A stretch of 64,000 nt of DNA. Origin: Bdellovibrionales bacterium (GTDB lineage: Bacteria > Bdellovibrionota > Bdellovibrionia > Bdellovibrionales > UBA1609). Below, piece by piece: positions 36,150 through 54,951 of the stretch. The position numbers and the translations under genes are program-made. The notes under the pieces were generated by a model. That model was not told where the DNA came from. It saw only the letters and a list, made by a program, of their open reading frames with translations, and searched no databases. The DNA lies in the NCBI GenBank assembly GCA_965199825.1, contig OZ241329.1, positions 2,336,001-2,400,000 on the forward strand. The letters are read 5' to 3'. The number at the start of each line of letters is the position of its first letter. Within the stretch, counting starts at the first letter, position 1.

Positions 36150-37694
36150 ATGAAAAGAGTCTCTTTACTTATTTTATTTATCCTAGGTTGCCAACAAAAG
36201 ACCGCTGTGGAATCGGGCAACTCCACCTTTGTGACCAAGGGCTTACCCTCTGTGGTTCAACCACTTGAAGAAAAAGAAGCTGCCACTCTGACTCCAACTT
36301 TCGTGAGCGAAGTAGCAAAGCCCCCAATTCAACCTTCCGCTCAACCTCATGTGACCAAAGAGCCAACAATTTTGGGCCTTACCAATCCAATGATTCTTCC
36401 TCCGCTCGGAAAACAAATTGAAGTGTTTGTCACATTCCAAACCACGGAATCTTCGGTAAGGCTGCACCTCCGTGGTGAGGTCAGCCCCTATCGCAATGGA
36501 CTGTTTGTTGGGGTGCTTTCGGATCCCTCTGAAATTAAAAGTCACCGGGTCAAAGCCATCGCCATCTGTCCAAATTCTATTTGCGATCATGTGATTGTGA
36601 ATCTGCATTACCTTGTGAATAACGAAATCAAAAACTTTCAGACCGAATGGTTTAAAAAAATTGAACCAGTCGAAATGACCGCGCCACCCGAACAGTCACC
36701 TCCAAATATAAATATCGCGGTGAGACCTGAAGAAGATGTGAACGAAGGTTCATTTTCTGAGCCCCCAAAAGGCTCCGTCGAAGAACAGGCCGAGCAGGGC
36801 GGTGGATATGTCTCGCTCGATCCCGAAAAGCTTGAGGGTTTTAAAACCGATTTGTTGCCTTTTACAGCACCTGTTCCAGCCACAATTCCGCACATTGAAA
36901 TTGCCAAAAAACATGAGCCTCCGGTCATCAATCTAAGGCCCGAAGTTGCAAAACCGTTAGATCCGATTCCAATTCCACCCCCGTTTGTTGAACCCCAAAA
37001 AGTGATTCAATCTTTGATTGAGGTCGCAACCAATCTGGTTGAAGGCGGGGAGGCCAGAAATTTTTATTTCAAAGCTGGCCAGATTATGGATGACAGTGTT
37101 TTGCCTGAGTCCGGAGTGGGCTTTGTTAAAACCACTCTTGAGCGCGATCGAAGGTATGGTTCAGGGTTGCTGGTTCAATTGATCATCGATTCGGCCAAAG
37201 CCTTTCGCACAGAGACCACCTATTCAGATAATGAATTATGGATTAGTGATATCTCGCAAAAAGGTGGCGGCGATATGCACCGCAGGGACTCGAGCAATCG
37301 TTTGATTAAGAATGATGCCCACCAAAATGGTTTAGATGTGGATATCGCTTATCTCAACCAAAATCCAAACTTTAATTTCCAGGTTGTGAATAATCAGGTG
37401 CTTCCCAATTTTGATTTTAAAAGGAATTTTGAATTTATGCGGCTGCTTGTAAAAACCAAAATGGTTGGATCTATTTTTGTCGATCCGCGTATCAAAAAGG
37501 GATTTTGTGGCTGGTTCAAACGAGAAATCCAAAATCCAACCGAGCTTGATCATGAAGTTCTAGAGCGAATGTATCATGTCGAGGGGCATACCAATCACTT
37601 TCATGTTCGGCTCAAATGCTCGCCAAATTATATCTTATGTGTGCCGCAAGGATTGAATGGCGATGGTCTTTTAAATAAAACCCCATGTAACTGA
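36150..37694 (+). CDS. Lipoprotein with C-terminal MepA-like (penicillin-insensitive) murein endopeptidase domain
   Basis: ILGC lipobox, Pro-rich linker, R.YG, ISDISQKGGG, HQNGLDVDI, GH.NHFHVRL.C. Confidence 0.85.
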   Translation: MKRVSLLILFILGCQQKTAVESGNSTFVTKGLPSVVQPLEEKEAATLTPTFVSEVAKPPIQPSAQPHVTKEPTILGLTNPMILPPLGKQIEVFVTFQTTESSVRLHLRGEVSPYRNGLFVGVLSDPSEIKSHRVKAIAICPNSICDHVIVNLHYLVNNEIKNFQTEWFKKIEPVEMTAPPEQSPPNINIAVRPEEDVNEGSFSEPPKGSVEEQAEQGGGYVSLDPEKLEGFKTDLLPFTAPVPATIPHIEIAKKHEPPVINLRPEVAKPLDPIPIPPPFVEPQKVIQSLIEVATNLVEGGEARNFYFKAGQIMDDSVLPESGVGFVKTTLERDRRYGSGLLVQLIIDSAKAFRTETTYSDNELWISDISQKGGGDMHRRDSSNRLIKNDAHQNGLDVDIAYLNQNPNFNFQVVNNQVLPNFDFKRNFEFMRLLVKTKMVGSIFVDPRIKKGFCGWFKREIQNPTELDHEVLERMYHVEGHTNHFHVRLKCSPNYILCVPQGLNGDGLLNKTPCN

Positions 37695-37718
37695 AACATA
37701 ATATAACTTATAAACAAA
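37691..37718 (-). other. dif site (XerC/XerD chromosome dimer resolution)
   Basis: Minus strand TTTGTTTATAA-GTTATA-TTATGTTTCAG versus E. coli dif GGTGCGCATAA-TGTATA-TTATGTTAAAT. Confidence 0.75.
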
Positions 37719-43372: not shown

Positions 43373-44491
43373 TCAACGTGAGCGATTGCGCATTTCTTTA
43401 AGAGTAGAAAAGGGTCGAGATGTTCGGCCTTGATAATGTTGGCGAAGAGATCCAATTTTGCTCAATCTTTTCTCTGCCAAGCGGTCGGCAGCGAGCTGGG
43501 TGCTAATGTTATCTTGTTTAGATATTCTAAATACATTTAAAAGATTATCAAAAACTTGGGCCGTTTTCTCGAATGCTCTGTCGGCCGAGTAACCTTCAAG
43601 TTCAACAAACACATTCATCAATCCACCCGCATTAATCACATAATCAGGCGCATAGAGAATTCCGATCTCACGCAGGTGATCGGCATGTCGAAATTCGGCG
43701 AGCTGATTATTGGCTCCACCCGCAACAACTTTACATTTCAATTGGGGCAAAGTTTTATCATTAATCACCGAGCCCATTGCACAGGGAGCAAAAATATCGC
43801 ATTCGGTTTTGATGATCGATTCGTGATCGGTCACTTGAACATTATATTTTTGCGAGATGTACGAGGCCTTTTCAGAATCAATATCGGCAACAATCAATTC
43901 CGCCCCTGCTTTGTGCAGATCATCCACTAAGTGCGAACCCACACTCCCCAATCCTTGCACCGCAATTCGCAAACCATGAAGATCGCTTGCGCCCAGTTTT
44001 TCAAGAGCTGCGGCCTTGATGCCCATCATCACTCCCCTAGCGGTATACGGTGAAGGATCACCTGATCCGCCAAAATTAGATGGAATTCCTGTGACAAAGG
44101 GGGTTTCCATAAAAATATATTCCATGTCACGCACTGTGGTGCCCACATCTTCGGCGGTGATATATTTGCCGCCCAAAGAATTAATAAAGGCACCAAACCC
44201 GCGAAAGAGGGCTTCCGATTTGTGTTTTTTTGGATCGCCCAAGATCACCGCTTTACCGCCACCAAGGTTGAGCCCTGCGGTTGCCGCTTTGTAGGTCATC
44301 CCTTTTGAAAGTCTTAAGACATCAACCAGTGCGTCTTGCTCATTGGCATAAGGCCACATCCGAAGTCCACCGAGTGCCGGTCCAAGTGTGGTGTTGTGGA
44401 TTGCGATGATCGCTTTAAGACCAATGTCTTTATTGTGACAATAAATAACTTCTTCGTGTCCGCCATGATTTTCGATCAATTCAAATGTCAT
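43373..44491 (-). CDS. ldh: Leucine dehydrogenase (Glu/Leu/Phe/Val family; probable start ATG 44491)
   Basis: IAIHNTTLGPALGG, LSKGMTYK, GGGKAVI, YITAEDVG, GGANNQL, YAPDYVINAGG. Confidence 0.93.
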   Translation of the reverse strand: MTFELIENHGGHEEVIYCHNKDIGLKAIIAIHNTTLGPALGGLRMWPYANEQDALVDVLRLSKGMTYKAATAGLNLGGGKAVILGDPKKHKSEALFRGFGAFINSLGGKYITAEDVGTTVRDMEYIFMETPFVTGIPSNFGGSGDPSPYTARGVMMGIKAAALEKLGASDLHGLRIAVQGLGSVGSHLVDDLHKAGAELIVADIDSEKASYISQKYNVQVTDHESIIKTECDIFAPCAMGSVINDKTLPQLKCKVVAGGANNQLAEFRHADHLREIGILYAPDYVINAGGLMNVFVELEGYSADRAFEKTAQVFDNLLNVFRISKQDNISTQLAADRLAEKRLSKIGSLRQHYQGRTSRPFSTLKEMRNRSR

Positions 44492-44537
44492 AGTTTTTCT
44501 CCAAAAGGCCAACGTAGACCAGGTGAGGTTCGCGACT

Positions 44538-45026
44538 TCAAGATTTAAATTTTAATGCGAAACACAAAATCAACAAAACGGTGTAAAGCGCAAATGCTAT
44601 TTTCCCGCGCTGGACCGATTTCTTGAGATGCTTCAATTCAGTTTCGAATTGATCACGCTGGATTTTGAAGTCTTCATTTAAATGAGTTTTTACCGGATTG
44701 GCCACGCTCATATTGTGATGTGGGTCAAAGACCGGGTACTTGTCGATCACGATCAAATACCACTGAAGCGCCTTATATATATGGGGTGGAATTTTAGACT
44801 CATCCTTCATCCAGCGCGTCCATGCCGAGGGATCAATCAACAAAATCTGACACATTTTTCTGCGACTGATTGAGAGTCGTTCGCGAACCGAATCCAGTGT
44901 GCCCATTTCCTTTCGTAAGACCCGAGCTTCAGCTTCATATTTTAATCTCAGCGAAGTTTTGAGCCGATTTTGGTTTGAATCTGCTTGTGAAGACTCGTCT
45001 TTGGTCGGAATGAAATCCATTTCCAT
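44538..45026 (-). CDS. HTH (XRE-like) protein with coiled coil and C-terminal membrane anchor
   Basis: LDSVRERLSISRRKMCQILLIDPSAWTRW HTH-like segment; C-terminal IAFALYTVLLILCFAL. Confidence 0.7.
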   Translation of the reverse strand: MEMDFIPTKDESSQADSNQNRLKTSLRLKYEAEARVLRKEMGTLDSVRERLSISRRKMCQILLIDPSAWTRWMKDESKIPPHIYKALQWYLIVIDKYPVFDPHHNMSVANPVKTHLNEDFKIQRDQFETELKHLKKSVQRGKIAFALYTVLLILCFALKFKS

Positions 45027-45037
45027 TCGTTATCCTC

Positions 45038-45092
45038 GTTGTGAAACACAATGTTGATGTTGTGATTCACTTTAAATCAAGTTGTGTAATAC
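45038..45092 (+). repeat. Three phased direct repeats GTTGTGWWWYAC
   Basis: GTTGTGAAACAC (45038), GTTGTGATTCAC (45059), GTTGTGTAATAC (45081); spacing 21 and 22 bp. Confidence 0.65.
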
Positions 45093-45183
45093 CATTGTTC
45101 ACATATTCGATTTTAAATTACAAATTTTTATATTTTTATGAAGTTTGACCCCTATGTGGACCTTGCCTAGTTTCGAAATCGAG

Positions 45184-45207
45184 TGTAACTTATATACATA
45201 AGTTACA
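45184..45207. repeat. Perfect inverted repeat, candidate recombinase or regulator site
   Basis: TGTAACTTAT-ATAC-ATAAGTTACA. Confidence 0.8.
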
Positions 45208-45347
45208 TAGCTAAGTATCTGAAATCACATAGGTTTAGGAAGGGTGCTTGTGATCTTTTAATATTGGTTACAGCTCTTGGGGGTCCAAACGCGATGTATA
45301 ACAACAAATTCTATTTAGTTAAAAATCACTCGTGAGGTTGATGCAAC

Positions 45348-45875
45348 ATGGCTAGAATTCAGCGCTACGCTTTAAATAAAAATAAGTATCTGCTCGAAAC
45401 CGAGCGCGAACGGCTCGAATATCTTCTCAAATCTCGGCTCATTTCTGATGCACGAAACTGCTCGCTTTTGCTCACGGGTCTTCATACAGGTGCCCGCGCA
45501 CTCGAAATTTTAAATCTGAAATGGGACGACTTAAATCTCAATGACGAAACTGTTTTTATCCGCGGAATTAAAAATTCCAATGATCGAGAAATTCCTTTAC
45601 CCCGTTGGTTTTTTCGCGATTTACAAAAGATAGAACGTCACAATGAAATGATCTTTCCGATCTCTTACAATCGGCTGCGACAGATCTGGCATCTTTATCG
45701 GCCGGTTCATAAAAAGTTTCATTGCCTCCGCCACACCTTTGCCATTCGCCTTTATCAAAAAACAAAAGACATTCGACTTGTTCAAGTGGCGCTGGGTCAC
45801 CGCAGTATTACCAACACCATGATCTATGCGGACTATATTTATTCGCGCGAGGAATTAAGAAAACTAATTCTTTAA
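45348..45875 (+). CDS. Small tyrosine recombinase (catalytic domain only, 175 aa)
   Basis: TGAR..E (R), GIKNS (K), HCLRH, LGH, T.IY; no N-terminal core-binding domain. Confidence 0.92.
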   Translation: MARIQRYALNKNKYLLETERERLEYLLKSRLISDARNCSLLLTGLHTGARALEILNLKWDDLNLNDETVFIRGIKNSNDREIPLPRWFFRDLQKIERHNEMIFPISYNRLRQIWHLYRPVHKKFHCLRHTFAIRLYQKTKDIRLVQVALGHRSITNTMIYADYIYSREELRKLIL

Positions 45876-45902
45876 AAACTTTTTCATCATGCTAGACTTT
45901 TT

Positions 45903-46613
45903 TTGGATCAACGAGGGGGACTACATTTGTTGCGCATTTTTTTAAAGCTGAGCATCTTGGGTTTTATCTTTAGCTCTTCGGCCTTTTCGGCCACACCTCA
46001 GATATTTTATGATTTACCAAAAGTGGCTGCGGTCCAAAACCGATCTTACTATCTCAATCACGAGTTTGCTCTGCAGCTTGGAACTCTTCCATCAGATGCC
46101 TTTAATAAGGGATATTTGCTAGGCGGAGTTTATACCTATTATTTTAGTGAATATCTCGGCTGGGAAGTGGCAAACGCCAATTATTCGGTCAATGCCGAAA
46201 CCAGCCTGAAGCGAGATCTGGTGGATAACTTTGGAGCTCAAGTTCAGAGCCAAGGATTTGGTGGAGTTCTTGATTACATCACTTACTTTGTAACAACAAA
46301 TTTAGTTTATACTCCTTTTTATACCAAGAGCTTGCTGTTTAATCGCAGTGTGATCCATGGGGAGCTTAGCTTTATTGCGGGTGCCGGTGCGGCCAATTTT
46401 AAAAATACCGGAATTAAACCCTTGGTCTCGCTGGGTGTAGGACTAAGATTTTTTACCTCCCCTTCGCACTCGATCAAACTTGATTTAAGAAACAATGTTT
46501 ACTTTGAAAGCTCGCTCGGTGCGGTCAATGCACTTTCAATCACCGCGGGCTATGCGTGGCAGTTAGGAAAACCACCTTTAAAACCACTCCAGATTGAAGG
46601 TGAAAATGAGTAG
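45903..46613 (+). CDS. GltA/GltB/GltH-like outer-membrane beta-barrel
   Basis: AVQNR.Y, LP.DAF.KG, Y.PFY.K..LFN..VIH, G.G.RFF. Confidence 0.75.
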   Translation: MDQRGGLHLLRIFLKLSILGFIFSSSAFSATPQIFYDLPKVAAVQNRSYYLNHEFALQLGTLPSDAFNKGYLLGGVYTYYFSEYLGWEVANANYSVNAETSLKRDLVDNFGAQVQSQGFGGVLDYITYFVTTNLVYTPFYTKSLLFNRSVIHGELSFIAGAGAANFKNTGIKPLVSLGVGLRFFTSPSHSIKLDLRNNVYFESSLGAVNALSITAGYAWQLGKPPLKPLQIEGENE

Positions 46614-48108
46614 CCTCTTTTTTTTATTTATGAGCCTTTTGAGTGCTGAGCCACAAAGTGGAAAAACCACCGATATTGCCTTTATTCGTGATCGACCAAA
46701 ACCCTTTACTTATCGTCCGGTTAATAACCGCTATTGGGAGCGCGTTCAAACTCACCTCAAAGAAAACAATCCTCTTTTTATTTTGCAAGAAGCGCACGAG
46801 CAACAAAAGACCTATGGATTTACCTCGACTGAGAGCCAAGAATCTCATTTGGCTGAAGCGATTGGTCTTAAAAAACTCTCTTTTTCTTATGCCTCATTTG
46901 TTATTCTCCTCAATCTCGCCCAAACAAAAATGGGAACCAATATTGGCGAGGCCGCACTTTTTGAACTTGAAGATTTAGCCCTTCATTATTCAATAGATGA
47001 ATCTCAACTCGAGTCTTTTTTAAATCAGAATGAATTTGCCGACGCCCATCACGATATTGTGAGTTTTATTAACTATTATAAAGGACTTCATAATCTTCGT
47101 TACGGTTATAAAAAATGGGCCGAACCAAGTCTGTCAGGAATTAATCCAGCATCGCCGTGGTCACTTCAACTCAACTACTGGACCGCCATGGGTGAGGTGG
47201 CCCGCGGCCGTATGGACAAAGCCTTTGAGATGCTTAGAACTTTAAATACCTCAGCCAATATTCCACAAAATCTGCAGAATATGGTTAAGCTTCAACTTGC
47301 ACGAATCTATTTTGAAAAAGGACTTTTCCAAGAAGCCGAAAGTTTTTATCAAGATGTTGGCGATATGGGCTTGCGTGAGCATGGCCGAATCCTTTTAGAA
47401 CGAGCATGGACGGCATATTATCTCAAAAATTTTTCGCAAGCCCTAGGGTGGCTCACCGCTTTAAAAAGTTCGACCTTTGATTCTTCCTTAACTCCTGAGC
47501 GCTACATTCTCGAAATGGTGATCTTAAGAGATCTGTGTCACTTTCCTGGAGTCGAAATTGTGGCTAAAGCTTTTGAAAAAAAATTTCGTCATACCTTAAG
47601 TGTGATTCGTAAGCGTGGAAGTCTGCGCGAAGAGCGAACATTATTTTCGATGGCCACATTGAACCGGGACCTCCAACCTCAAGCCAATCTGGTCGATCAA
47701 CTTCGTAAAGAGCGTGATCGATTTCAGCGCGCCGGAATGCAAAAGTTTTTGTTCTTTGATGACGCTTTAGATGAATACAAAAAGCGCGATAAAATTTTAA
47801 CCGCCAATCTTGAGCCACGACTCGAAAATTTCGCACGCAAATCGGCAGAGTCGGTTTTGGATTCCGAAGAGCAAATTCAATTTTTGCAGTATCAAAGTAA
47901 ACTTGATGCTTTGAGAATTATTAAAGCGGATGAAGACCGGGCTTATCGTGCCGAAAAAGTGAGCCATGTGGCATTTCAAAAACTCTACTGGCCGGTCGAA
48001 AAAGAATTTTGGCTTGAAGAGCAAAATGATTATCGCGTTTTGATATCGAGCCGCTGCGGTACTAATGCAACTCCTGAAGATCTTAAACTCGAAAGAAAGT
48101 TTCGCTAA
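46594..48108 (+). CDS. GltC-like TPR protein
   Basis: LAR.YFE, LLERAW..Y, PE.YIL......LC, YWP...EFW.EE...YRV.I.S.C. Confidence 0.7.
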   Translation: MKVKMSSLFFLFMSLLSAEPQSGKTTDIAFIRDRPKPFTYRPVNNRYWERVQTHLKENNPLFILQEAHEQQKTYGFTSTESQESHLAEAIGLKKLSFSYASFVILLNLAQTKMGTNIGEAALFELEDLALHYSIDESQLESFLNQNEFADAHHDIVSFINYYKGLHNLRYGYKKWAEPSLSGINPASPWSLQLNYWTAMGEVARGRMDKAFEMLRTLNTSANIPQNLQNMVKLQLARIYFEKGLFQEAESFYQDVGDMGLREHGRILLERAWTAYYLKNFSQALGWLTALKSSTFDSSLTPERYILEMVILRDLCHFPGVEIVAKAFEKKFRHTLSVIRKRGSLREERTLFSMATLNRDLQPQANLVDQLRKERDRFQRAGMQKFLFFDDALDEYKKRDKILTANLEPRLENFARKSAESVLDSEEQIQFLQYQSKLDALRIIKADEDRAYRAEKVSHVAFQKLYWPVEKEFWLEEQNDYRVLISSRCGTNATPEDLKLERKFR

Positions 48109-51100
48109 TGATTGCGATCTTATTGTATATCGGCGTTGCCTTTGGGGGCGTGACCCAACAGATGACTCTTGAGCAGATGCGCCGGGATCTTGCAAGAGTC
48201 GATAAAAGTTCGGAAGAAACAAAGGCAAAAATTAAAACGGTGCGTGATGCCCGTTTTTTGCCAGATCTTTATTTTGCCCTTGCCGAATTTTATGTCGAAA
48301 AGGCGCGGTATATGTATTCGATCAAGGTGGCCGAAAATCCTAAAACACCGCTCGATGAAATGGATTTTACCGGCGAGCGCCGCCCAAAACTTCAGGCAAT
48401 TGAAACTTATGATACATTGATTGATAAATTTCCTAAACTTCCTGAGCGCGATAAAGCCATATTTTATAAAGCTCACGAGCTGCGCGAACTCGGCAGGCTT
48501 GATGACATGGTCAAGGTCTACTCGCAGCTCACAAAAGAATATCCTGAAAGCGAGTATTGGGCCGAATCCCAAGTGATTATCGGTGACTATTTTTTTGATG
48601 AAAAAAAAGATCCTGCTTTTGCTAAAGATATTTACCAAAAGATTTTAAAACTTCCACCAGGTCCGTTTACCACGCTTGCCCATTATAAAATCGGTTGGTG
48701 CGATATCAATAGCACCGACTTTAAAAACGCCTTGCTCGAGTTCGAAAAAGTTTTGAATGAAAATAAAGATGCCGACCTTACAAAGCTGCCAGAAATTTTT
48801 AGAAAAACCGATGTGCGGCGCGATGCTCTGCTTGCCATGGTTTGGCCTTATTCGGAGTTGTCACAAAAAGATCTTAAAACAATGGGCAACGATGAGCGCA
48901 TGAATGCGCTGACCTATTTTTATTCTCTCTCACCTGATCCTGCGAGTTACGAAAAAGTTTTGTCGCGTCTCGGTCGGCGTCTTGCTCTTAAGCTTCGGAT
49001 GATCGAAACCACCCAAGTTTATTTTGAGCTCTTAAGAATCACCCAAGATATTGAAACTCGAATGGATGTGGTCGAGCGACTGTATGTTTCGATGAAGAAT
49101 TCGCAAAAACCCTGGCCGGTTCACGGGCTTGTTCAAGAAATTGCTAAAACTCTGCCCCAGATCAAAGCCTCATCGACTTTAAAAGAAGGGGTAAAGAAAA
49201 AAGCGATCAACGATTGGGAGATCTTTGCTCGTGACGTTGCCACTCGCTCACAAAAAAGAGCTAAGGAAACCCGCGAGCAGCTCGATTGGGATTGGACCAT
49301 TCGAGATTACAACGCCTATTTGTCGGCATTTCCTGAATCAAAATTTGCCTCGACCTTGAAATTGAATTTGGCTGAAAGTTATTTTGCAAATCATCAGCAA
49401 GTCAAAGCGGCTCGCACCTACGAAGAGATTGCGCGTGAGACAAAGGATAAAGAAAAACATAAAGAGTATTTGGACTCTGCAATTCAGTCGTATATCGCAG
49501 CCCTTCGGGATCAATCCCATTTGAGTCGGCTTGAATTGACCGAAGTCCGGTTTGGTTTGCGCGACGTAGGCCAAGACTTTATCAAGCTCAATCCCAACGA
49601 CAAAGCCGCACAAGATATTCAACTCAACATCGCACAGACTTACTATGATGAGCGCGATTTTGATAAAGCGGTTCAAGGATTTAAATTATTTTTAAAAAAT
49701 TACCCCCAAAGCCCCCAAGTCTCGGTGGCGGCAAATCTTATTCTTGATTCCTACAATCAACGCGAAGACTACAAAGGAATTGTGCGCGAAGGTCGTGAGC
49801 TTTTAAAAACTCCGGCGGTTAAAGATCCCGCACTCAAAACCCAAATTTCACAAATCGTTGAGCAAGCCGAAATGCGAGCGGTACAAAAAGCGGCAGGAGA
49901 ATTTGGCTCGGCCAATTACGCTGCGAATTTGATGAATTTAGCTAACAAATACAAAGGCTCATCGCTTGGAGATCAAGCACTTTATGAAGCCTTTGTTGCT
50001 CTGAGAGCCAAGAAAGATCCTAAGTTTTATGAGTCTGGGGAGCAGCTTTTACTTCAGCACTCGACTTCAAAATATGCCCAAGAAGTTGCAACCAGCATGG
50101 GCCAAATGGCGCTGACCACTGCCGATTTTAGACGAGCTGCACTTTATTTTGAGCTTTATTATGATCGCTACTCTTCAAAGCCCGAAGCCAAAGAATTCCT
50201 CACCAATGCGGCAAAAATTCGTGAGCTCTTGGGCGATTTTAAAGTGGCGGGGCGTGACAACGAAAAATTGAATCAAGGCGATGCGGTCGCAAAACAAGAT
50301 TTTTTAGCCCAAGACTGGACCGCACTTTTGAGATCCGCGGCCAAGGCTCAAGGTATTAATGTGCCCTATTATGAGGGGCTTGCACAATATCGTTTACGCG
50401 GTGTCGGACCGGCGAGACCATCGCTGGAGCAAGCGGCCAGCAACCAGTCCAAAGATTTTTCGGATCAAGAAAAAGCGGCCCATGCACTTTATCTTTTATC
50501 GATGGGTGCGATGACCTCATATAAACAAATTCAATTGAAGGCCGGAAACGAAAGTAAAATCGTTCAAGAAAAAGCGGGAGCCTTAAAAGATCTCGAATCG
50601 AATCTTAAAAAGGTGATCGCTTTTGGTAATGGTCGCTGGACTATCGCAGCACTCTATGGACTGGGCCAAGCCAATAAAGAATTTGCCCAGTTTATTCGGA
50701 GCGCTCCACTGCCCCAGGGGCTCAGTGCGGATCAACAAAAGCAGTTTCACCAGGCGCTAGAAAAACAAGCCCAGACCTATGATCAAAACACCAAAACTTA
50801 CTTTAATGATTGCGTGAACAATGCCGAAAAATTTGAGGTTTTTACCCGTTTTGCCCTGGGTTGTCAGAGTGGGGGGCAACTTGTAGTTGATGAGGCCAAG
50901 GAGGTTCAGACCGTGGCTCATGCTCAAGAAAAAGATCCTGCTGGTGTGACCGAAGTGAGAAAACAATTGTTTGATCAACCCCGAAATTTAAATTTGTTGA
51001 TTAAGCTTTCAGATATTTATTTAAAAAACCAAGACTATGCGATGACCGAACTGATTTTAAACCGGGCTCAAGATATTGAACCCGAAAATTCTCAAATTCC

Positions 51101-51329
51101 TGCGCGCATTGGTATAGTAAAATTATTTAAAAATGAATTGATGGATGCAAAAGTCTGGTTTGATAAAGCGTTGAGTAAAAACCCAAAAGAAAAATATGCA
51201 CTTTGGGGTCTAGCCGGACTCTATCACCAGTTTCATTTTAAAAAACGTTATGATCAAGTGGCTTCACAAGCTCGTGCTGTCGGACTTCCGTCGGGTCCGA
51301 TTCATCCGTTTGTTGATCACGCATTTTAG
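48108..51329 (+). CDS. GltD/AgmU-like large TPR protein
   Basis: 1073 aa of TPRs; IGDYFF, YK.GW...N, W.IAALY..G.....FA..I..AP.P.GL. Confidence 0.75.
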   Translation: MIAILLYIGVAFGGVTQQMTLEQMRRDLARVDKSSEETKAKIKTVRDARFLPDLYFALAEFYVEKARYMYSIKVAENPKTPLDEMDFTGERRPKLQAIETYDTLIDKFPKLPERDKAIFYKAHELRELGRLDDMVKVYSQLTKEYPESEYWAESQVIIGDYFFDEKKDPAFAKDIYQKILKLPPGPFTTLAHYKIGWCDINSTDFKNALLEFEKVLNENKDADLTKLPEIFRKTDVRRDALLAMVWPYSELSQKDLKTMGNDERMNALTYFYSLSPDPASYEKVLSRLGRRLALKLRMIETTQVYFELLRITQDIETRMDVVERLYVSMKNSQKPWPVHGLVQEIAKTLPQIKASSTLKEGVKKKAINDWEIFARDVATRSQKRAKETREQLDWDWTIRDYNAYLSAFPESKFASTLKLNLAESYFANHQQVKAARTYEEIARETKDKEKHKEYLDSAIQSYIAALRDQSHLSRLELTEVRFGLRDVGQDFIKLNPNDKAAQDIQLNIAQTYYDERDFDKAVQGFKLFLKNYPQSPQVSVAANLILDSYNQREDYKGIVREGRELLKTPAVKDPALKTQISQIVEQAEMRAVQKAAGEFGSANYAANLMNLANKYKGSSLGDQALYEAFVALRAKKDPKFYESGEQLLLQHSTSKYAQEVATSMGQMALTTADFRRAALYFELYYDRYSSKPEAKEFLTNAAKIRELLGDFKVAGRDNEKLNQGDAVAKQDFLAQDWTALLRSAAKAQGINVPYYEGLAQYRLRGVGPARPSLEQAASNQSKDFSDQEKAAHALYLLSMGAMTSYKQIQLKAGNESKIVQEKAGALKDLESNLKKVIAFGNGRWTIAALYGLGQANKEFAQFIRSAPLPQGLSADQQKQFHQALEKQAQTYDQNTKTYFNDCVNNAEKFEVFTRFALGCQSGGQLVVDEAKEVQTVAHAQEKDPAGVTEVRKQLFDQPRNLNLLIKLSDIYLKNQDYAMTELILNRAQDIEPENSQIPARIGIVKLFKNELMDAKVWFDKALSKNPKEKYALWGLAGLYHQFHFKKRYDQVASQARAVGLPSGPIHPFVDHAF

Positions 51330-51358
51330 AATATGAAATCAGCTGCCGATAGTTTGAG

Positions 51359-53233
51359 GTGGGCGCAATTAAACAAAGTAATCAGAGCCGAGTTTCATTA
51401 AAAATCACCGATGGCAACGGCGTCATCTTTGAGCGAATATTTTCGCAATTTCCAATTCATATTGGGCGCTCCACCAATTGTGAAGTTCCACTTCCGCAGT
51501 TCAACTGGATTTCTCGTCAGCACTTAAAAATCGATATGGAAGACGGACAGCTCTATTGCTACGAGCTCAGCGTGAACAATGGTTTAAAGGTGAACAACAC
51601 TTTACAAAAAAAAGTGCCTCTCACCGAAAATCTTGTATTAGAATTGCTCTCGATTCGTCTTTACATTCATTTTCCAAAAGCAAACGAAATGACCCAAAGC
51701 TCGCTCTCCGTCGTCAGCTCTGAAGATGCAACTGTGATTGAAGCATTCGTGCCCCAAAAGCATGAGCATCATGGTTTTTTAAGACCCACGATTTCGGGTG
51801 GACTTGAGGCCTTAAATCTTTCGGCCCCTTTCCCCTCGGTTGATCGCTTGGCCCGCAACCGTCGAGTGCTCGAAGCGTTTGTGACCTGGAAGGGTCAACT
51901 TGTTGATAGTAAACTGTGCCGCGCCGGCGGAAACTTGCGAGTCGGGCGCACCAGAGAATCTTTATATGTTCCAACTTTGTCGCGCACTTTTGAAATTGCC
52001 AGCTATGACGGAAATTTTGGCGAGTGTTTACTGCCTGAAAAAGCAAATGGATTTCTATATTCAACCAATGATAGAAAAACTGCTCTTCAAGATCTAATAA
52101 AGGGACAAGCCCTAAATAAAAAAGGTCGACAGTACGCCCTTCGTTTAATGCCTCTTGATGTGTGTCAGCTCAATATGGGCCATGACATCCAACTTTATCT
52201 TCGCTACGCCCCTGCTCCACGTCAGCTTTCAAAAAAGGGTTTAACCGAACCCGATGAGTTGCTCCAAAAAGCGGGATTATTTTCTGGATTATTTCATCTT
52301 TTGTTTTTGCTCTTGGTGGTCTTTATTGGACCCCAACAGCATGTATTAAAAGTTAAAAATTTGTCGCCCCGGATTGCAAAACTGATTGTGACAAAACCAA
52401 AACCTCCTGAGCCTCCACCACCTGAAGAAAAAAAACCTGAACCTCCAAAGGTTGCAGAACAAAAACCAAAGCCCGAGAAAGTTCCCAAAAAAGTTCAGCC
52501 CAAACCTAAACAAGTTGTGGTTAAGACAAGCCCTGATTTGAAAAAAATCAATAAGCTTCCGGTTCATGTGAAAGAACAAGCGGATGCGACGGCTCCTACA
52601 AAAATGCCAGAAAAAAATGTTGAAGCTCTCGGCGCACTCGCAGCACTTGGTGCACTGGGCGCACCGACTCCCACAGCAAAAGATCAAGCGGTGTCGATCA
52701 ACGTCAACGCCAATGCAGGCGGCGCAAGTTCACTTTCAACAACCGGTGTGATTGGTACTCTTAAATCCAAAGGCGGCAAACTTGAAGCTGGCGGATTAGC
52801 TGGAGTTAAAACTACAGGCAAAGGTTTTGGAACAGGAACAGGTTACGGAGTTCAAGGTCTACAAGGTCGCGCTGGTGCTCGAGGAGTTCAAGGCTCAGTG
52901 ATTGGTACACCATCACTCATGAAATTGAGCGGCAGTGAAGGTCTCACACAAAAAGAAGTGATGGACGTTGTTAAAAAATATGCCGGAAAAATTCAGCAAT
53001 GTTATGAGCGAGCTCTCTTAGCCGAGACCGGCCTTGCAGGACGAATTGAGTATCAATGGTCAATCACACCAAAAGGTGTCGTGACCGATGCGAGTGTGAA
53101 GCGCTCGGATATGAAAAATGCCGATCAACTCAACGAATGTGTTTTGACTGTGTTTAAAGGGATGAAGTTTCCTCCTGCTAAAAACGGTCAAGGAACAACA
53201 CCAAGCATTGGATTCCCATTCGGCCGCATGTAG
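51359..53233 (+). CDS. GltG (AgmX/PglI-like): FHA, TM, Pro/Lys linker, TonB-like C-terminal domain
   Basis: IGRS..C.......ISRQH FHA; GL....V..VV......I..CYERAL....LAG.I...W.I...G.V. Confidence 0.82.
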   Translation: MGAIKQSNQSRVSLKITDGNGVIFERIFSQFPIHIGRSTNCEVPLPQFNWISRQHLKIDMEDGQLYCYELSVNNGLKVNNTLQKKVPLTENLVLELLSIRLYIHFPKANEMTQSSLSVVSSEDATVIEAFVPQKHEHHGFLRPTISGGLEALNLSAPFPSVDRLARNRRVLEAFVTWKGQLVDSKLCRAGGNLRVGRTRESLYVPTLSRTFEIASYDGNFGECLLPEKANGFLYSTNDRKTALQDLIKGQALNKKGRQYALRLMPLDVCQLNMGHDIQLYLRYAPAPRQLSKKGLTEPDELLQKAGLFSGLFHLLFLLLVVFIGPQQHVLKVKNLSPRIAKLIVTKPKPPEPPPPEEKKPEPPKVAEQKPKPEKVPKKVQPKPKQVVVKTSPDLKKINKLPVHVKEQADATAPTKMPEKNVEALGALAALGALGAPTPTAKDQAVSINVNANAGGASSLSTTGVIGTLKSKGGKLEAGGLAGVKTTGKGFGTGTGYGVQGLQGRAGARGVQGSVIGTPSLMKLSGSEGLTQKEVMDVVKKYAGKIQQCYERALLAETGLAGRIEYQWSITPKGVVTDASVKRSDMKNADQLNECVLTVFKGMKFPPAKNGQGTTPSIGFPFGRM

Positions 53234-53317
53234 GCCGAGCCCCACTTAAGTCGAGTTCTTTTTTGTCAGCTACTCACAATCCCCTTTGCTTGCTTAAATA
53301 GTTTCGAGGGGTAACAC

Positions 53318-53968
53318 ATGCTTCATACATTGCTCGAACATTATCGCGAAGGTGGCTTTTTTATGCACGTAATCTTAGGCACATCGGCCTTAGGTTTTGT
53401 GATCGTCATCGAGCGCTTTATTATAATCAATCAAGCCTCTTCGGTAAGAAAAGAAGAGCTTCTCAATCACGTCAACTCCTACATTCTTCAAGGTCATCTT
53501 GATAAAGCAATCGCGGTCACTTCACAGGTTCGAAATCCTCTCACCAATATTGTTCGGGCCGGACTTCAGGCGGTAGCTAACAACGGCGGAACAGAAGAGG
53601 TCCAGACTGCGATGGATGCGGTCGCATTAAGAGAAATTCCGCGGATCGAGCGACGAGTGGGTTTACTCTCCATGCTATCAAACGTTGCAACTCTTGTGGG
53701 ATTACTCGGAACGGTGACCGGGATGATCGGCGCCTTTGCTACGGTTGCTAACGTGTCACCTTCAGAAAAAGCAACGTTATTGGCGAACGCAATTTCTGAA
53801 GCGATGAATTGTACGGCGTTTGGACTTGTTGTTGCGATTCCGCTGCTTGCTGCGTTTGGATGGTTAAATTCAAAAGCTCAAGATACGGTTGATGATATTC
53901 ATGAATCAGCAGTGGCCACATTGAATTTTATTTTGGTTAATCGCGATAAAATTTTAAAAGGAAGATAA
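53318..53968 (+). CDS. MotA/TolQ/ExbB proton channel (AglR-like)
   Basis: EGG.FM, ATLVGLLGTVTGMIGAF, ISEAMNCTAFGL.VAIP. Confidence 0.92.
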   Translation: MLHTLLEHYREGGFFMHVILGTSALGFVIVIERFIIINQASSVRKEELLNHVNSYILQGHLDKAIAVTSQVRNPLTNIVRAGLQAVANNGGTEEVQTAMDAVALREIPRIERRVGLLSMLSNVATLVGLLGTVTGMIGAFATVANVSPSEKATLLANAISEAMNCTAFGLVVAIPLLAAFGWLNSKAQDTVDDIHESAVATLNFILVNRDKILKGR

Positions 53969-54403
53969 ATGAGCGGCGGCGGCGGAGAGTATGAGTTAAA
54001 CCTTACGTCCTACATCGATTTGATGAGCACATTAATTGTGTTTTTATTAATGACCGCAGTCTGGAATCAAATCTCTGTTTTATCCTCTGATACCGGCGGT
54101 ACCACCGCCTCGGATACTCCCAGTCCCCCAAGTAACAAACCAAAAGTCTCTTTAAGTGTGACAATTTTAAAAGACCAAATGGAAATGACCGAAAATAGCA
54201 GCTCAGTCAAAATTCCACATCAAGGCGATGATCTCGACACTATGAGAATGGTCGGAATTTTAAACCAGTGGAAACAAAAATATCCCGAAAAAAATGATGT
54301 CACATTGAATACCGAAAACTCGGTTTCGTACAAAATGTTGATTCGGGCGTTTGATACATTGGTTGGAAATAATTTTCCTGATGTGGGAGTAAGCACTCAG
54401 TGA
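53969..54403 (+). CDS. ExbD/TolR family protein (AglQ/AglS-like)
   Basis: ELNLT.YIDLMS.LI.FLL.TAVW TM with conserved Asp. Confidence 0.88.
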   Translation: MSGGGGEYELNLTSYIDLMSTLIVFLLMTAVWNQISVLSSDTGGTTASDTPSPPSNKPKVSLSVTILKDQMEMTENSSSVKIPHQGDDLDTMRMVGILNQWKQKYPEKNDVTLNTENSVSYKMLIRAFDTLVGNNFPDVGVSTQ

Positions 54404-54951
54404 AATCCTCATCGATTATTCCTCCTGGTTATAATGTTCTGCCAAAATATGATCTGCCCCACCTAAGACATCGCTTGTATGGACACGGAAAAAAGCCTGC
54501 CGATTTTAATCTCAGCCTTACTGCGATGATTGATATGTTTTCAACGCTCGTCGTATTTTTACTTCTTAATTTTTCGGCAACGGGCGAGGCCTACTTTGTT
54601 TCGAAAAATGTGGTCATTCCTGAGGCTAGCAATGTTCGCCAACTTCAAAGTCTTCCACTGGTGTCGCTCACCAAAGAAGGTGTCTCGATTGATTCGATCG
54701 GTTTAGTTGGAACAAATCCTGGTGTGATGACCATGGACGATTGGGAAATGCCCGGACTTGTTGCGGCTCTACAAAAAATCAAAGCGTCGCAAGCGACCTT
54801 AAAACAGGCCGGTGTTGAGCCTAAGGCCGAAGTCAATATTCAGGCAGATCAGGGCGTTTCGGTTGTGCACATTAAACGTGTGATGAATGTTTTAATTTCA
54901 GAGGGATTCACCGGAATTAATTTTGCGGTTCGTGAGGTCAATGCCCACTAA
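54400..54951 (+). CDS. ExbD/TolR family protein (AglS/AglQ-like)
   Basis: LSLTAMIDMFS.LV.FLL.NFS..GE; IQAD.......IKRVM. Confidence 0.88.
   Translation: MKSSSIIPPGYNVLPKYDLPHLRHRLYGHGKKPADFNLSLTAMIDMFSTLVVFLLLNFSATGEAYFVSKNVVIPEASNVRQLQSLPLVSLTKEGVSIDSIGLVGTNPGVMTMDDWEMPGLVAALQKIKASQATLKQAGVEPKAEVNIQADQGVSVVHIKRVMNVLISEGFTGINFAVREVNAH

Follow-up and report, generated by a model that had tools for sequence, protein, structure and literature searches.

One of the questions that the terminus region of Bdellovibrionales chromosomes raises is what a genome that codes for full-length XerC-like and XerD-like proteins (300 aa each) and carries an ordinary dif site does with a further, smaller tyrosine recombinase encoded nearby. 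The locus considered here lies in a window of 64,000 nucleotides (the whole stretch of DNA that was analysed) and comprises a recombinase ORF placed head-to-head with an ORF for a putative DNA-binding protein across a spacer of 321 bp (Table 1). As read from the sequence, the module is a three-part unit consisting of a mini-recombinase, one 28-bp site, and a predicted membrane-anchored DNA-binding protein. The literature searched, as far as its text was accessible, contains no description of such a unit, and a Hi-C preprint does not mention it in its accessible part.

Table 1. Features of the module and the neighbouring dif site (positions are those of the window)
Feature	Position	Strand	Remarks
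Predicted 162-aa protein with XRE-like HTH, coiled coil, and membrane anchor at the C-terminus	44538..45026	-	Bd2026 orthologue; first gene before ldh-yfgM-bamB
Box 1, 13-bp near-palindrome of TTGT-N5-ACAA type, likely HTH operator	45039..45051	.	First of three boxes
Box 2, same TTGT-N5-ACAA type	45060..45072	.	21 bp from box 1
Box 3, same TTGT-N5-ACAA type	45082..45094	.	Spacing to box 2, 22 bp; to crossover site, 100 bp
28-bp 11-6-11 crossover site	45182..45209	+	Left arm 45182-45192, asymmetric core hexamer 45193-45198, right arm 45199-45209
IHF-like element	45212..45224	-	Abuts right arm; 7/9 consensus positions here
Catalytic-domain-only tyrosine recombinase, 175 aa	45348..45875	+	Bd2025 orthologue by gene order and length; putative recognition helix 107-117, putative specificity residue N108
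XerCD dif site, ordinary	37691-37718	-	7.5 kb from module; linked, outside the module itself

A first-pass annotation of this DNA had listed the two ORFs, the spacer, the flanking genes, and a dif-like site some 7.5 kb away, and all of these are found where it placed them, the flanks being core genes (ldh-yfgM-bamB) and Glt-like genes. It had also described the setting as free of phage or attachment-site context, which holds for this genome but not for a relative in which the site serves as the att site of a provirus (locus L198, below). No tRNA gene lies closer to the module than 11.9 k in the 64-kb window scanned, Rfam gave no matches in 44400-46000, and the cumulative GC skew has its maximum at about 25.9 k of the window. 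A Glt/Agl-like gliding cluster lies directly 3' of the recombinase (45903-54951) and is also found within 10 kb downstream in loci L034, L036, L058, L063, and L235. Just 5' of the recombinase start, at 45330-45344, is a motif of the form TCGCGAG-N4-6-WTGC that recurs in 27 of 154 loci and here overlaps the ribosome-binding region.

The minimal recombinase and its distribution

Pfam recognises PF00589 alone in the recombinase (residues 33-162), the catalytic residues R50, K75, H125, R128, H151, and Y160 are unchanged in 154 of 154 loci, and in the AF2 model (pLDDT 88) the protein consists of a catalytic domain and nothing else, matching those of XerA, XerH, P2, and HP1. The annotated claim of a full catalytic set without an N-terminal core-binding domain is thus upheld by both the domain search and the model. 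An RKHRH pentad and a tyrosine within a catalytic fold place the protein in the tyrosine recombinase superfamily, while the core-binding domain expected of simple tyrosine recombinases (CB plus CAT; PMC8138268, in the text available) is absent. That classification, published in 2021, has every tyrosine recombinase carry a core-binding domain in the sections we could consult (PMC8138268), and a large family without one stands outside it. The family comprises 255 clusters at E 1e-30; among the best 150 relatives, 133 have 200 aa or fewer, and of the 17 longer ones, all scanned, 14 have no second domain above cut-off. The C-terminal helix used in subunit exchange is conserved, and the protein scores 50 with the XerS model (cut-off 267) and 36-39 with the FimB/FimE family models (cut-offs 221-222). 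In one genome (L258/L259) the recombinase is split over two frames (residues 5-97 and 100-175), the result of a frameshift or an assembly error.

Across 301 genomes of the phylum, strong matches were confined to the class to which the window belongs, with two weak ones outside it, and the named relatives are Bdellovibrionales except for two listed simply as Proteobacteria. Of 332 genomes within the class, 216 carry the recombinase and 224 the HTH gene; both are present in 215, neither in 107, the HTH gene only in nine, and the recombinase only in one, according to a hand comparison of two listings in which the discordant genomes are drafts with at least 40 contigs. Whole genera have neither gene (for example g179, 0/10; g186, 0/14; g187, 0/4). 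In four lacking genomes with intact synteny, ldh is followed by yceD or by yceD-fabH-fabD, and HTH gene, boxes, site, and recombinase are all missing; two further lacking genomes have a different neighbourhood, and the genes are likewise absent. The host recombinase is syntenic and almost always single, which is not the pattern of a prophage or island integrase, a pattern seen only for the viral relative in L198.

The dif site was matched in 54 of 60 genomes searched, and genomes without the unit still have it. Module and dif share a contig in 39 of the 41 genomes in which both positions were obtained (second, weaker dif matches having been dropped), and in these 39, of which 25 belong to one genus, the distance between them has a median of 12.4 kb, is below 30 kb in 36, and reaches 113 kb at most. 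The first-pass annotation had proposed a domesticated, conserved, and terminus-linked unit, and had named the gene pair, the spacer motifs, and the distance to dif as the features whose conservation would bear on it; the counts given here for the pair and for dif, and those given below for the site, agree with that proposal. The unit is, however, set in an old synteny, with the conserved order bamB-yfgM-ldh-(argS)-HTH/recombinase ... fabH-fabD-fabG, so that the terminus linkage may in part simply be inherited with it; on the other hand, among 41 wide loci the HTH gene is near in all 41 and ldh in 29.

The crossover site, residue 108, and viral relatives

The site was surveyed in 154 of the 216 recombinase-positive genomes, using a matrix trained on 46 sites, and was found in 147 of the 154 loci (93 of the 100 outside the training set). 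Four of the remaining seven loci are at a contig edge, two have the HTH gene with an intact site 10 and 84 kb off, and one is interrupted by a provirus. Perfect palindromes with 10-bp arms are common by themselves (118 in contig C1), and the site is taken as real because it is conserved. The palindrome that the first-pass annotation had marked at 45184-45207 is genuine but was drawn too narrowly, the site having the 11-6-11 organisation given in Table 1. It is single in this genome (score 44.6, with no other match of 12 or more), and a search of five other genomes for a second good copy found none. The core hexamer is TATACA here and TAGTTA in 106 of the 147 loci, and its outer bases are self-complementary (T-A-N-N-T-A) in most of the 147 sites. 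In 13 sites (for example L065, L073, and L149) the core carries the common hexamer in exact reverse complement, as though it had been turned round on the spot. Arm positions 4-7 differ between lineages while staying complementary.

That the recombinase acts at this adjacent palindrome, as had been suggested, is now most likely, in view of the covariation of its residue 108 with the arms, a directional test of that covariation, and the junction of the L198 provirus. Among the top five covariation links in 144 distinct protein-site pairs, the strongest four join recombinase residue 108 to site positions 25, 4, 5, and 24. The summed score of this residue is 0.87 (sd 0.12), the next being 0.38, and its links are symmetric at positions 4-6 and 23-25, with none in the flank. 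The HTH protein had been put forward as the source of the site specificity, but its best column reaches 0.48 against 0.84 for residue 108; as residue 108 predicts the arm sequence, it would be the recombinase, not the HTH protein, that reads the site. The code that relates residue 108 to positions 4-6 runs P, ATA; D, AAA; H with R111, YAC; Q, TAA; and N with R111, RTR. In the AF2 model, residue 108 starts the helix 107-117, which, read by eye, would correspond to helix J of XerD, with Y107/N108 in the place of the R220/Q221 pair. XerD Q221 is reported to touch dif position 24 (PMC2731167, available excerpt).

The link between residue and arms also appears when relatedness is taken into account. 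In 71 independent pairs drawn from all branches, both arms had changed in 16 of the 23 pairs that differ at residue 108 and in four of the 48 that do not; with stratification by distance the expectation was 11.5 (p 0.004), and residue 108 ranked second of 173 columns. A looser test that counted any change gave p 0.048 and rank five of 173 columns, and treekit tests on supported branches, with 1-5 pairs, pointed in the same direction and were not significant. In a leave-relatives-out directional prediction, which drew on distant loci only, residue 108 scored 17:1 (p 7e-5), the best of 141 columns, the other columns pooled giving 1143:1043. New loci agree with the code in three cases of D (AAA) and one of E (ACA), as does virus L352, which has Q; in phage L251, which has P at 108, one arm fits, and phage L310, with D, breaks the code. 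We infer that the enzyme reads its arms through residue 108, and this natural table of variants and matching sites could yield a very small re-targetable recombinase.

Two other readings of the site sequence were set aside. The right flank as a third recombinase arm shows no covariation with residue 108. An RNA or ssDNA hairpin behind the arm covariation would have had to contend with a mild bias (24 G-T against 10 A-C in 36 distinct sites), several poorly paired sites, and no Rfam match, and is not needed because a code read by one protein accounts for the covariation. Scored against the IHF consensus, the IHF-like element has at least seven of nine positions at this register in 126 of 147 loci, compared with 3% of shuffles, a count that leans high because the flank was included in the site-search matrix.

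One locus records a recombination event at the site. In L198, a metagenome-assembled contig, an element of 9,381 bp lies between the HTH gene and the recombinase, with a full site at its left end (536) and, at its right end (9917), a foreign left arm followed by hexamer, right arm, and flank. The identity of the ends starts exactly at the hexamer, an indirect indication that strand exchange very probably takes place at this core. The element codes for a packaging-type ATPase, a lytic transglycosylase, and a 374-aa capsid-like protein whose Atlas model matches the PRD1 P3 and PM2 P2 capsids, and on this basis it is taken as a double-jelly-roll provirus; no replication protein was recognised among its genes. 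It also brings its own recombinase (215 aa, 45% identical to that of the host and sharing the rare helix YHRLHQ), so that the junctions do not prove the host enzyme active. Another virus of the type (L352, L353) carries the same kind of one-armed half-site 5' of its mini-recombinase. With a length of about 9 kb and a mini tyrosine recombinase of their own, these double-jelly-roll viruses (L198:536-9944, L352, L353) apparently infect Bdellovibrionales. In the text available, the double-jelly-roll IMEX viruses of Vibrio are described as carrying a 17-bp one-armed mimic of dif and regenerating the full dif (PMC12715192). The L198 insertion is of the IMEX style and follows the same logic, with the difference that the viruses at the unit's site carry their own mini-recombinase, and the unit offers a second chromosomal site parasitised in this fashion.

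Relatives of the enzyme are found well beyond this provirus. Among the matches listed, 27 of 61 viral loci encode a relative of nearly full length, and extra prophage copies exist besides, and within the DNA fetched two such viral loci have a clear site and one a doubtful one. Host and viral mini-recombinases form one supported clade apart from XerC and XerD, in which host rows fall among viral ones, the base being unresolved and long branches flagged. The recombinase belongs to a large viral mini-recombinase family and was probably acquired from a virus. IMG/VR yielded no match to the site pattern and no close relatives of the L198 capsid protein, and the annotated phages and plasmids searched for recombinase relatives contained just distant integrases. 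Phage sites were noted at L251:4595-4622, about 4.7 kb 5' of the recombinase in L310, and about 270 bp 5' of it in L292, some with the 11-6-11 form and an IHF-like flank. In L275 the mini-recombinase accompanies a full-length 348-aa integrase and so has another job there.

The predicted HTH partner and its boxes

The architecture that the first-pass annotation had assigned to the partner, HTH, coiled coil, and C-terminal TM, recurs in the predicted fold, an N-terminal bundle of four short helices followed by one long helix with a hydrophobic tail at its end. Domain searches returned weak XRE/lambda-repressor-like matches, so that the label HTH is a prediction, and the fold search gave nothing at E 0.001. 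Of 146 orthologues, 130 contain a hydrophobic segment, in 125 cases no more than 10 aa from the end; several of the 16 others are truncated or do without it. The gene is divergent from the recombinase in 146 of 146 loci and heads an operon, HTH-argS-ldh-yfgM-bamB, that includes essential genes. The partner resembles RocS in architecture only, RocS too being a protein of about 163 aa with an HTH at the N-terminus, a coiled coil, and a membrane anchor at the C-terminus. RocS, in the part of PMC11500499 available, combines a winged HTH with an amphipathic helix, whereas the protein of the unit has an XRE-like HTH, a hydrophobic tail, and three local boxes, and domain and fold searches of the partner found no RocS homology (winged HTH, DUF536). 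In phage loci L253, L272, and L274 the mini-recombinase adjoins a small XRE-type HTH gene without a membrane tail, possibly an ancestral pairing.

At least one TTGT-N5-ACAA box stands left of the site in 141 of 146 loci, compared with seven matches on the other side, and the boxes, spaced by 21-22 bp, are located at the start of the HTH gene. Where genes have been inserted at the locus, boxes and site remain together. The box-to-site distance, set in 127 loci, is 109-112 bp in 81, and 45 of the 46 others lie within 2.5 bp of whole 10.7-bp turns against an expectation of 47%, the period having been fitted on the same data and related loci not being independent, with shifted classes present in several families. 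As 36 non-modal loci are shifted by an odd number of helical turns, a mis-assigned box cannot explain the phasing. Such whole-turn phasing would also fit a promoter loop.

RacA and MatP are further analogies to the partner, but the many sites over ter that characterise the MatP/matS type are absent here: a matS-like spread of the boxes was rejected on 27 matches as against 42 in the reversed genome, and on one to four scattered exact matches per genome in five genomes. Tethering to the membrane by the predicted HTH-TM protein could therefore act only locally, through the three boxes. Single box-like matches at about 56347, 58744, and 59775 of the window, within 15 kb of the module, are not above genome background, and a tandem box-like pair 21 bp apart 5' of a MarR-like gene (L280; C1:1356607 in the same genome) is probably that gene's operator.

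Candidate functions of the unit

The reading to which we lean, by a small degree, is that the unit is a second dif-like system that recombines sister copies of its site and so separates joined chromosomes. Each chromosome has one site, so that the sister copy would be its natural partner and the outcome resolution or unlinking. Two recombinase monomers would, very probably, bind the two arms, with residue 108 reading positions 4-5 and 24-25, as the covariation suggests, and strands would with similarly high probability be exchanged across the 6-bp core, as the provirus junction indirectly indicates. The chances are about even that IHF, bound to one flank, and the HTH protein, bound to the three phased boxes of the opposite flank, form a bent, membrane-attached complex that replaces the grip of the missing core-binding domain and gates the reaction. 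It is somewhat probable that the partner is the sister site and that the product is multimer resolution or unlinking in the polyploid filament, in parallel to XerCD. The purpose would then be the unlinking of chromosomes in filamentous growth, a role in multi-fission segregation, and the unit bears on the question of how, in Bdellovibrio, several chromosome copies made within a single undivided filament come apart. A bolder version, tentative and as a whole rather unlikely, would make of the domesticated viral recombinase a membrane-tethered, septum-independent resolvosome in which HTH-TM protein and IHF form a phased complex, multimeric or catenated chromosomes are unlinked in the growing filament before a septum activates XerCD, and the arm specificity is reprogrammed by one residue, with viruses tracking the code to integrate there.

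Known systems offer partial parallels. XerS/difSL and XerH/difH likewise consist of one tyrosine recombinase and, linked to its gene, a two-armed site near ter whose core has 6 bp; they too are chromosomal and passed on vertically (PMC2731167, available text). Their enzymes have about 356 aa, however, whereas that of the unit has 175 aa and no core-binding domain, and they replace XerC, XerD, and dif, with which the unit coexists. The unit differs further in its phased boxes, its IHF-like flank, and the HTH-TM gene inherited together with it. XerCD/dif shares the 28-bp 11-6-11 site and the dependence of position 24-25 on the residue that corresponds to XerD Q221, but the two arms of the unit follow one protein, and core and arm sequence differ from those of the genome's own dif. 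As in cer/psi and other accessory-site resolvosomes, the core site is accompanied by 100-150 bp of accessory sequences for other proteins; the unit differs in being chromosomal, in having its own recombinase, and in its predicted membrane-anchored accessory protein. The unit resembles XerS/XerH in how it works and dif in being parasitised, and belongs to neither family nor to FimB/FimE.

Several observations speak against a second resolver. With XerC, XerD, and dif all present, one is not obviously needed, and the unit has been lost in whole genera. Its genes in strain HD100, by gene order and length, are Bd2025 and Bd2026, annotated merely as integrase and hypothetical. Published RPKM values for attack and growth phase are 54/80 for Bd2025 and 42/156 for Bd2026 (PMC3627812, tables available), the HTH transcript being growth-phase specific. 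In the accessible 109J Tn-seq data (PMC6561027), in which W below 0.1 denotes a defect, rows matched by gene order give W 1.2-1.8 for the recombinase gene and 1.8-2.5 for the HTH gene, so that transposon mutants of both are without a predation defect, as are two other, Xer-like recombinase entries. The proteome tables searched (PMC12546842, as available) contain neither Bd2025 nor Bd2026, and a chromosome review names just XerCD, dif, and FtsK for Bdellovibrio in its available text (PMC11318664). The polarity of the KOPS motif was too sparse to place a switch between dif and the 28-bp site. The two genes and the one 28-bp site are targets in a tractable strain.

The missing predation defect would also suit a platform for handling viruses, in which enzyme and site excise, trap, or exclude integrating viruses or take up DNA rather than serve segregation. 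The provirus in one site, the half-site of the second virus, the common clade of host and viral enzymes, and the extra genes that in 20 of 147 loci separate the site from the recombinase (against three loci on the HTH side) fit this idea, which we nevertheless judge unlikely: a provirus was seen in one of 154 loci only, no second site scoring 10 occurs in any other locus, IMG/VR lacks the site pattern, and both terminus linkage and membrane anchor are left unexplained. Viruses parasitise dif in the same way, yet dif is no defence, on the available text of PMC12715192. A regulatory complex, with the recombinase as a phased transcription factor of the operon and the HTH protein as its auto-repressor, would account for boxes that sit at the HTH start and are kept with the site upon gene insertion, for their whole-turn phasing, and for the growth-phase transcript of a gene heading an operon with essential genes. 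The six invariant catalytic residues, the 11-6-11 geometry with its asymmetric core, the crossover junction at the hexamer, and the persistence of the downstream genes where the unit is lost make it distinctly unlikely, although autoregulation and recombination may both reside in the same unit.

The second-resolver reading has also to be set against activities without exchange between sister duplexes. Isolated catalytic domains have nicking activity, and a site-specific swivel that nicks and religates like a type IB topoisomerase, or a covalent membrane hold, would suit an enzyme without a core-binding domain, with a single site and a predicted membrane-anchored neighbour; the conserved subunit-exchange helix and a provirus junction that requires full strand exchange at this core render it quite improbable. 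The self-complementary outer bases of the hexamer and the 13 flipped cores might suggest a hairpin-forming, protelomerase-like enzyme that opens the chromosome transiently at ter. Protelomerases, however, carry extra domains that the recombinase is without, the site is intact within single-contig genomes, a virus integrates through it, and a symmetric dimer explains the same base conservation, so that this idea is very improbable. Scarcely credible is the phase switch of FimB/FimE type that the first-pass annotation had entertained. FimB/FimE are likewise short tyrosine recombinases, similar in size and domain content, and their systems use IHF, but the unit has no invertible segment or pair of inverted sites and stays far under the model cut-offs; there is one site per genome, and the orientation of the divergent genes is fixed. 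A 25-nt inverted repeat (21/25; 44551-44575 and 45052-45076) flanks the HTH gene here, the only such pair in 300 kb, and is kept in two of 142 loci.
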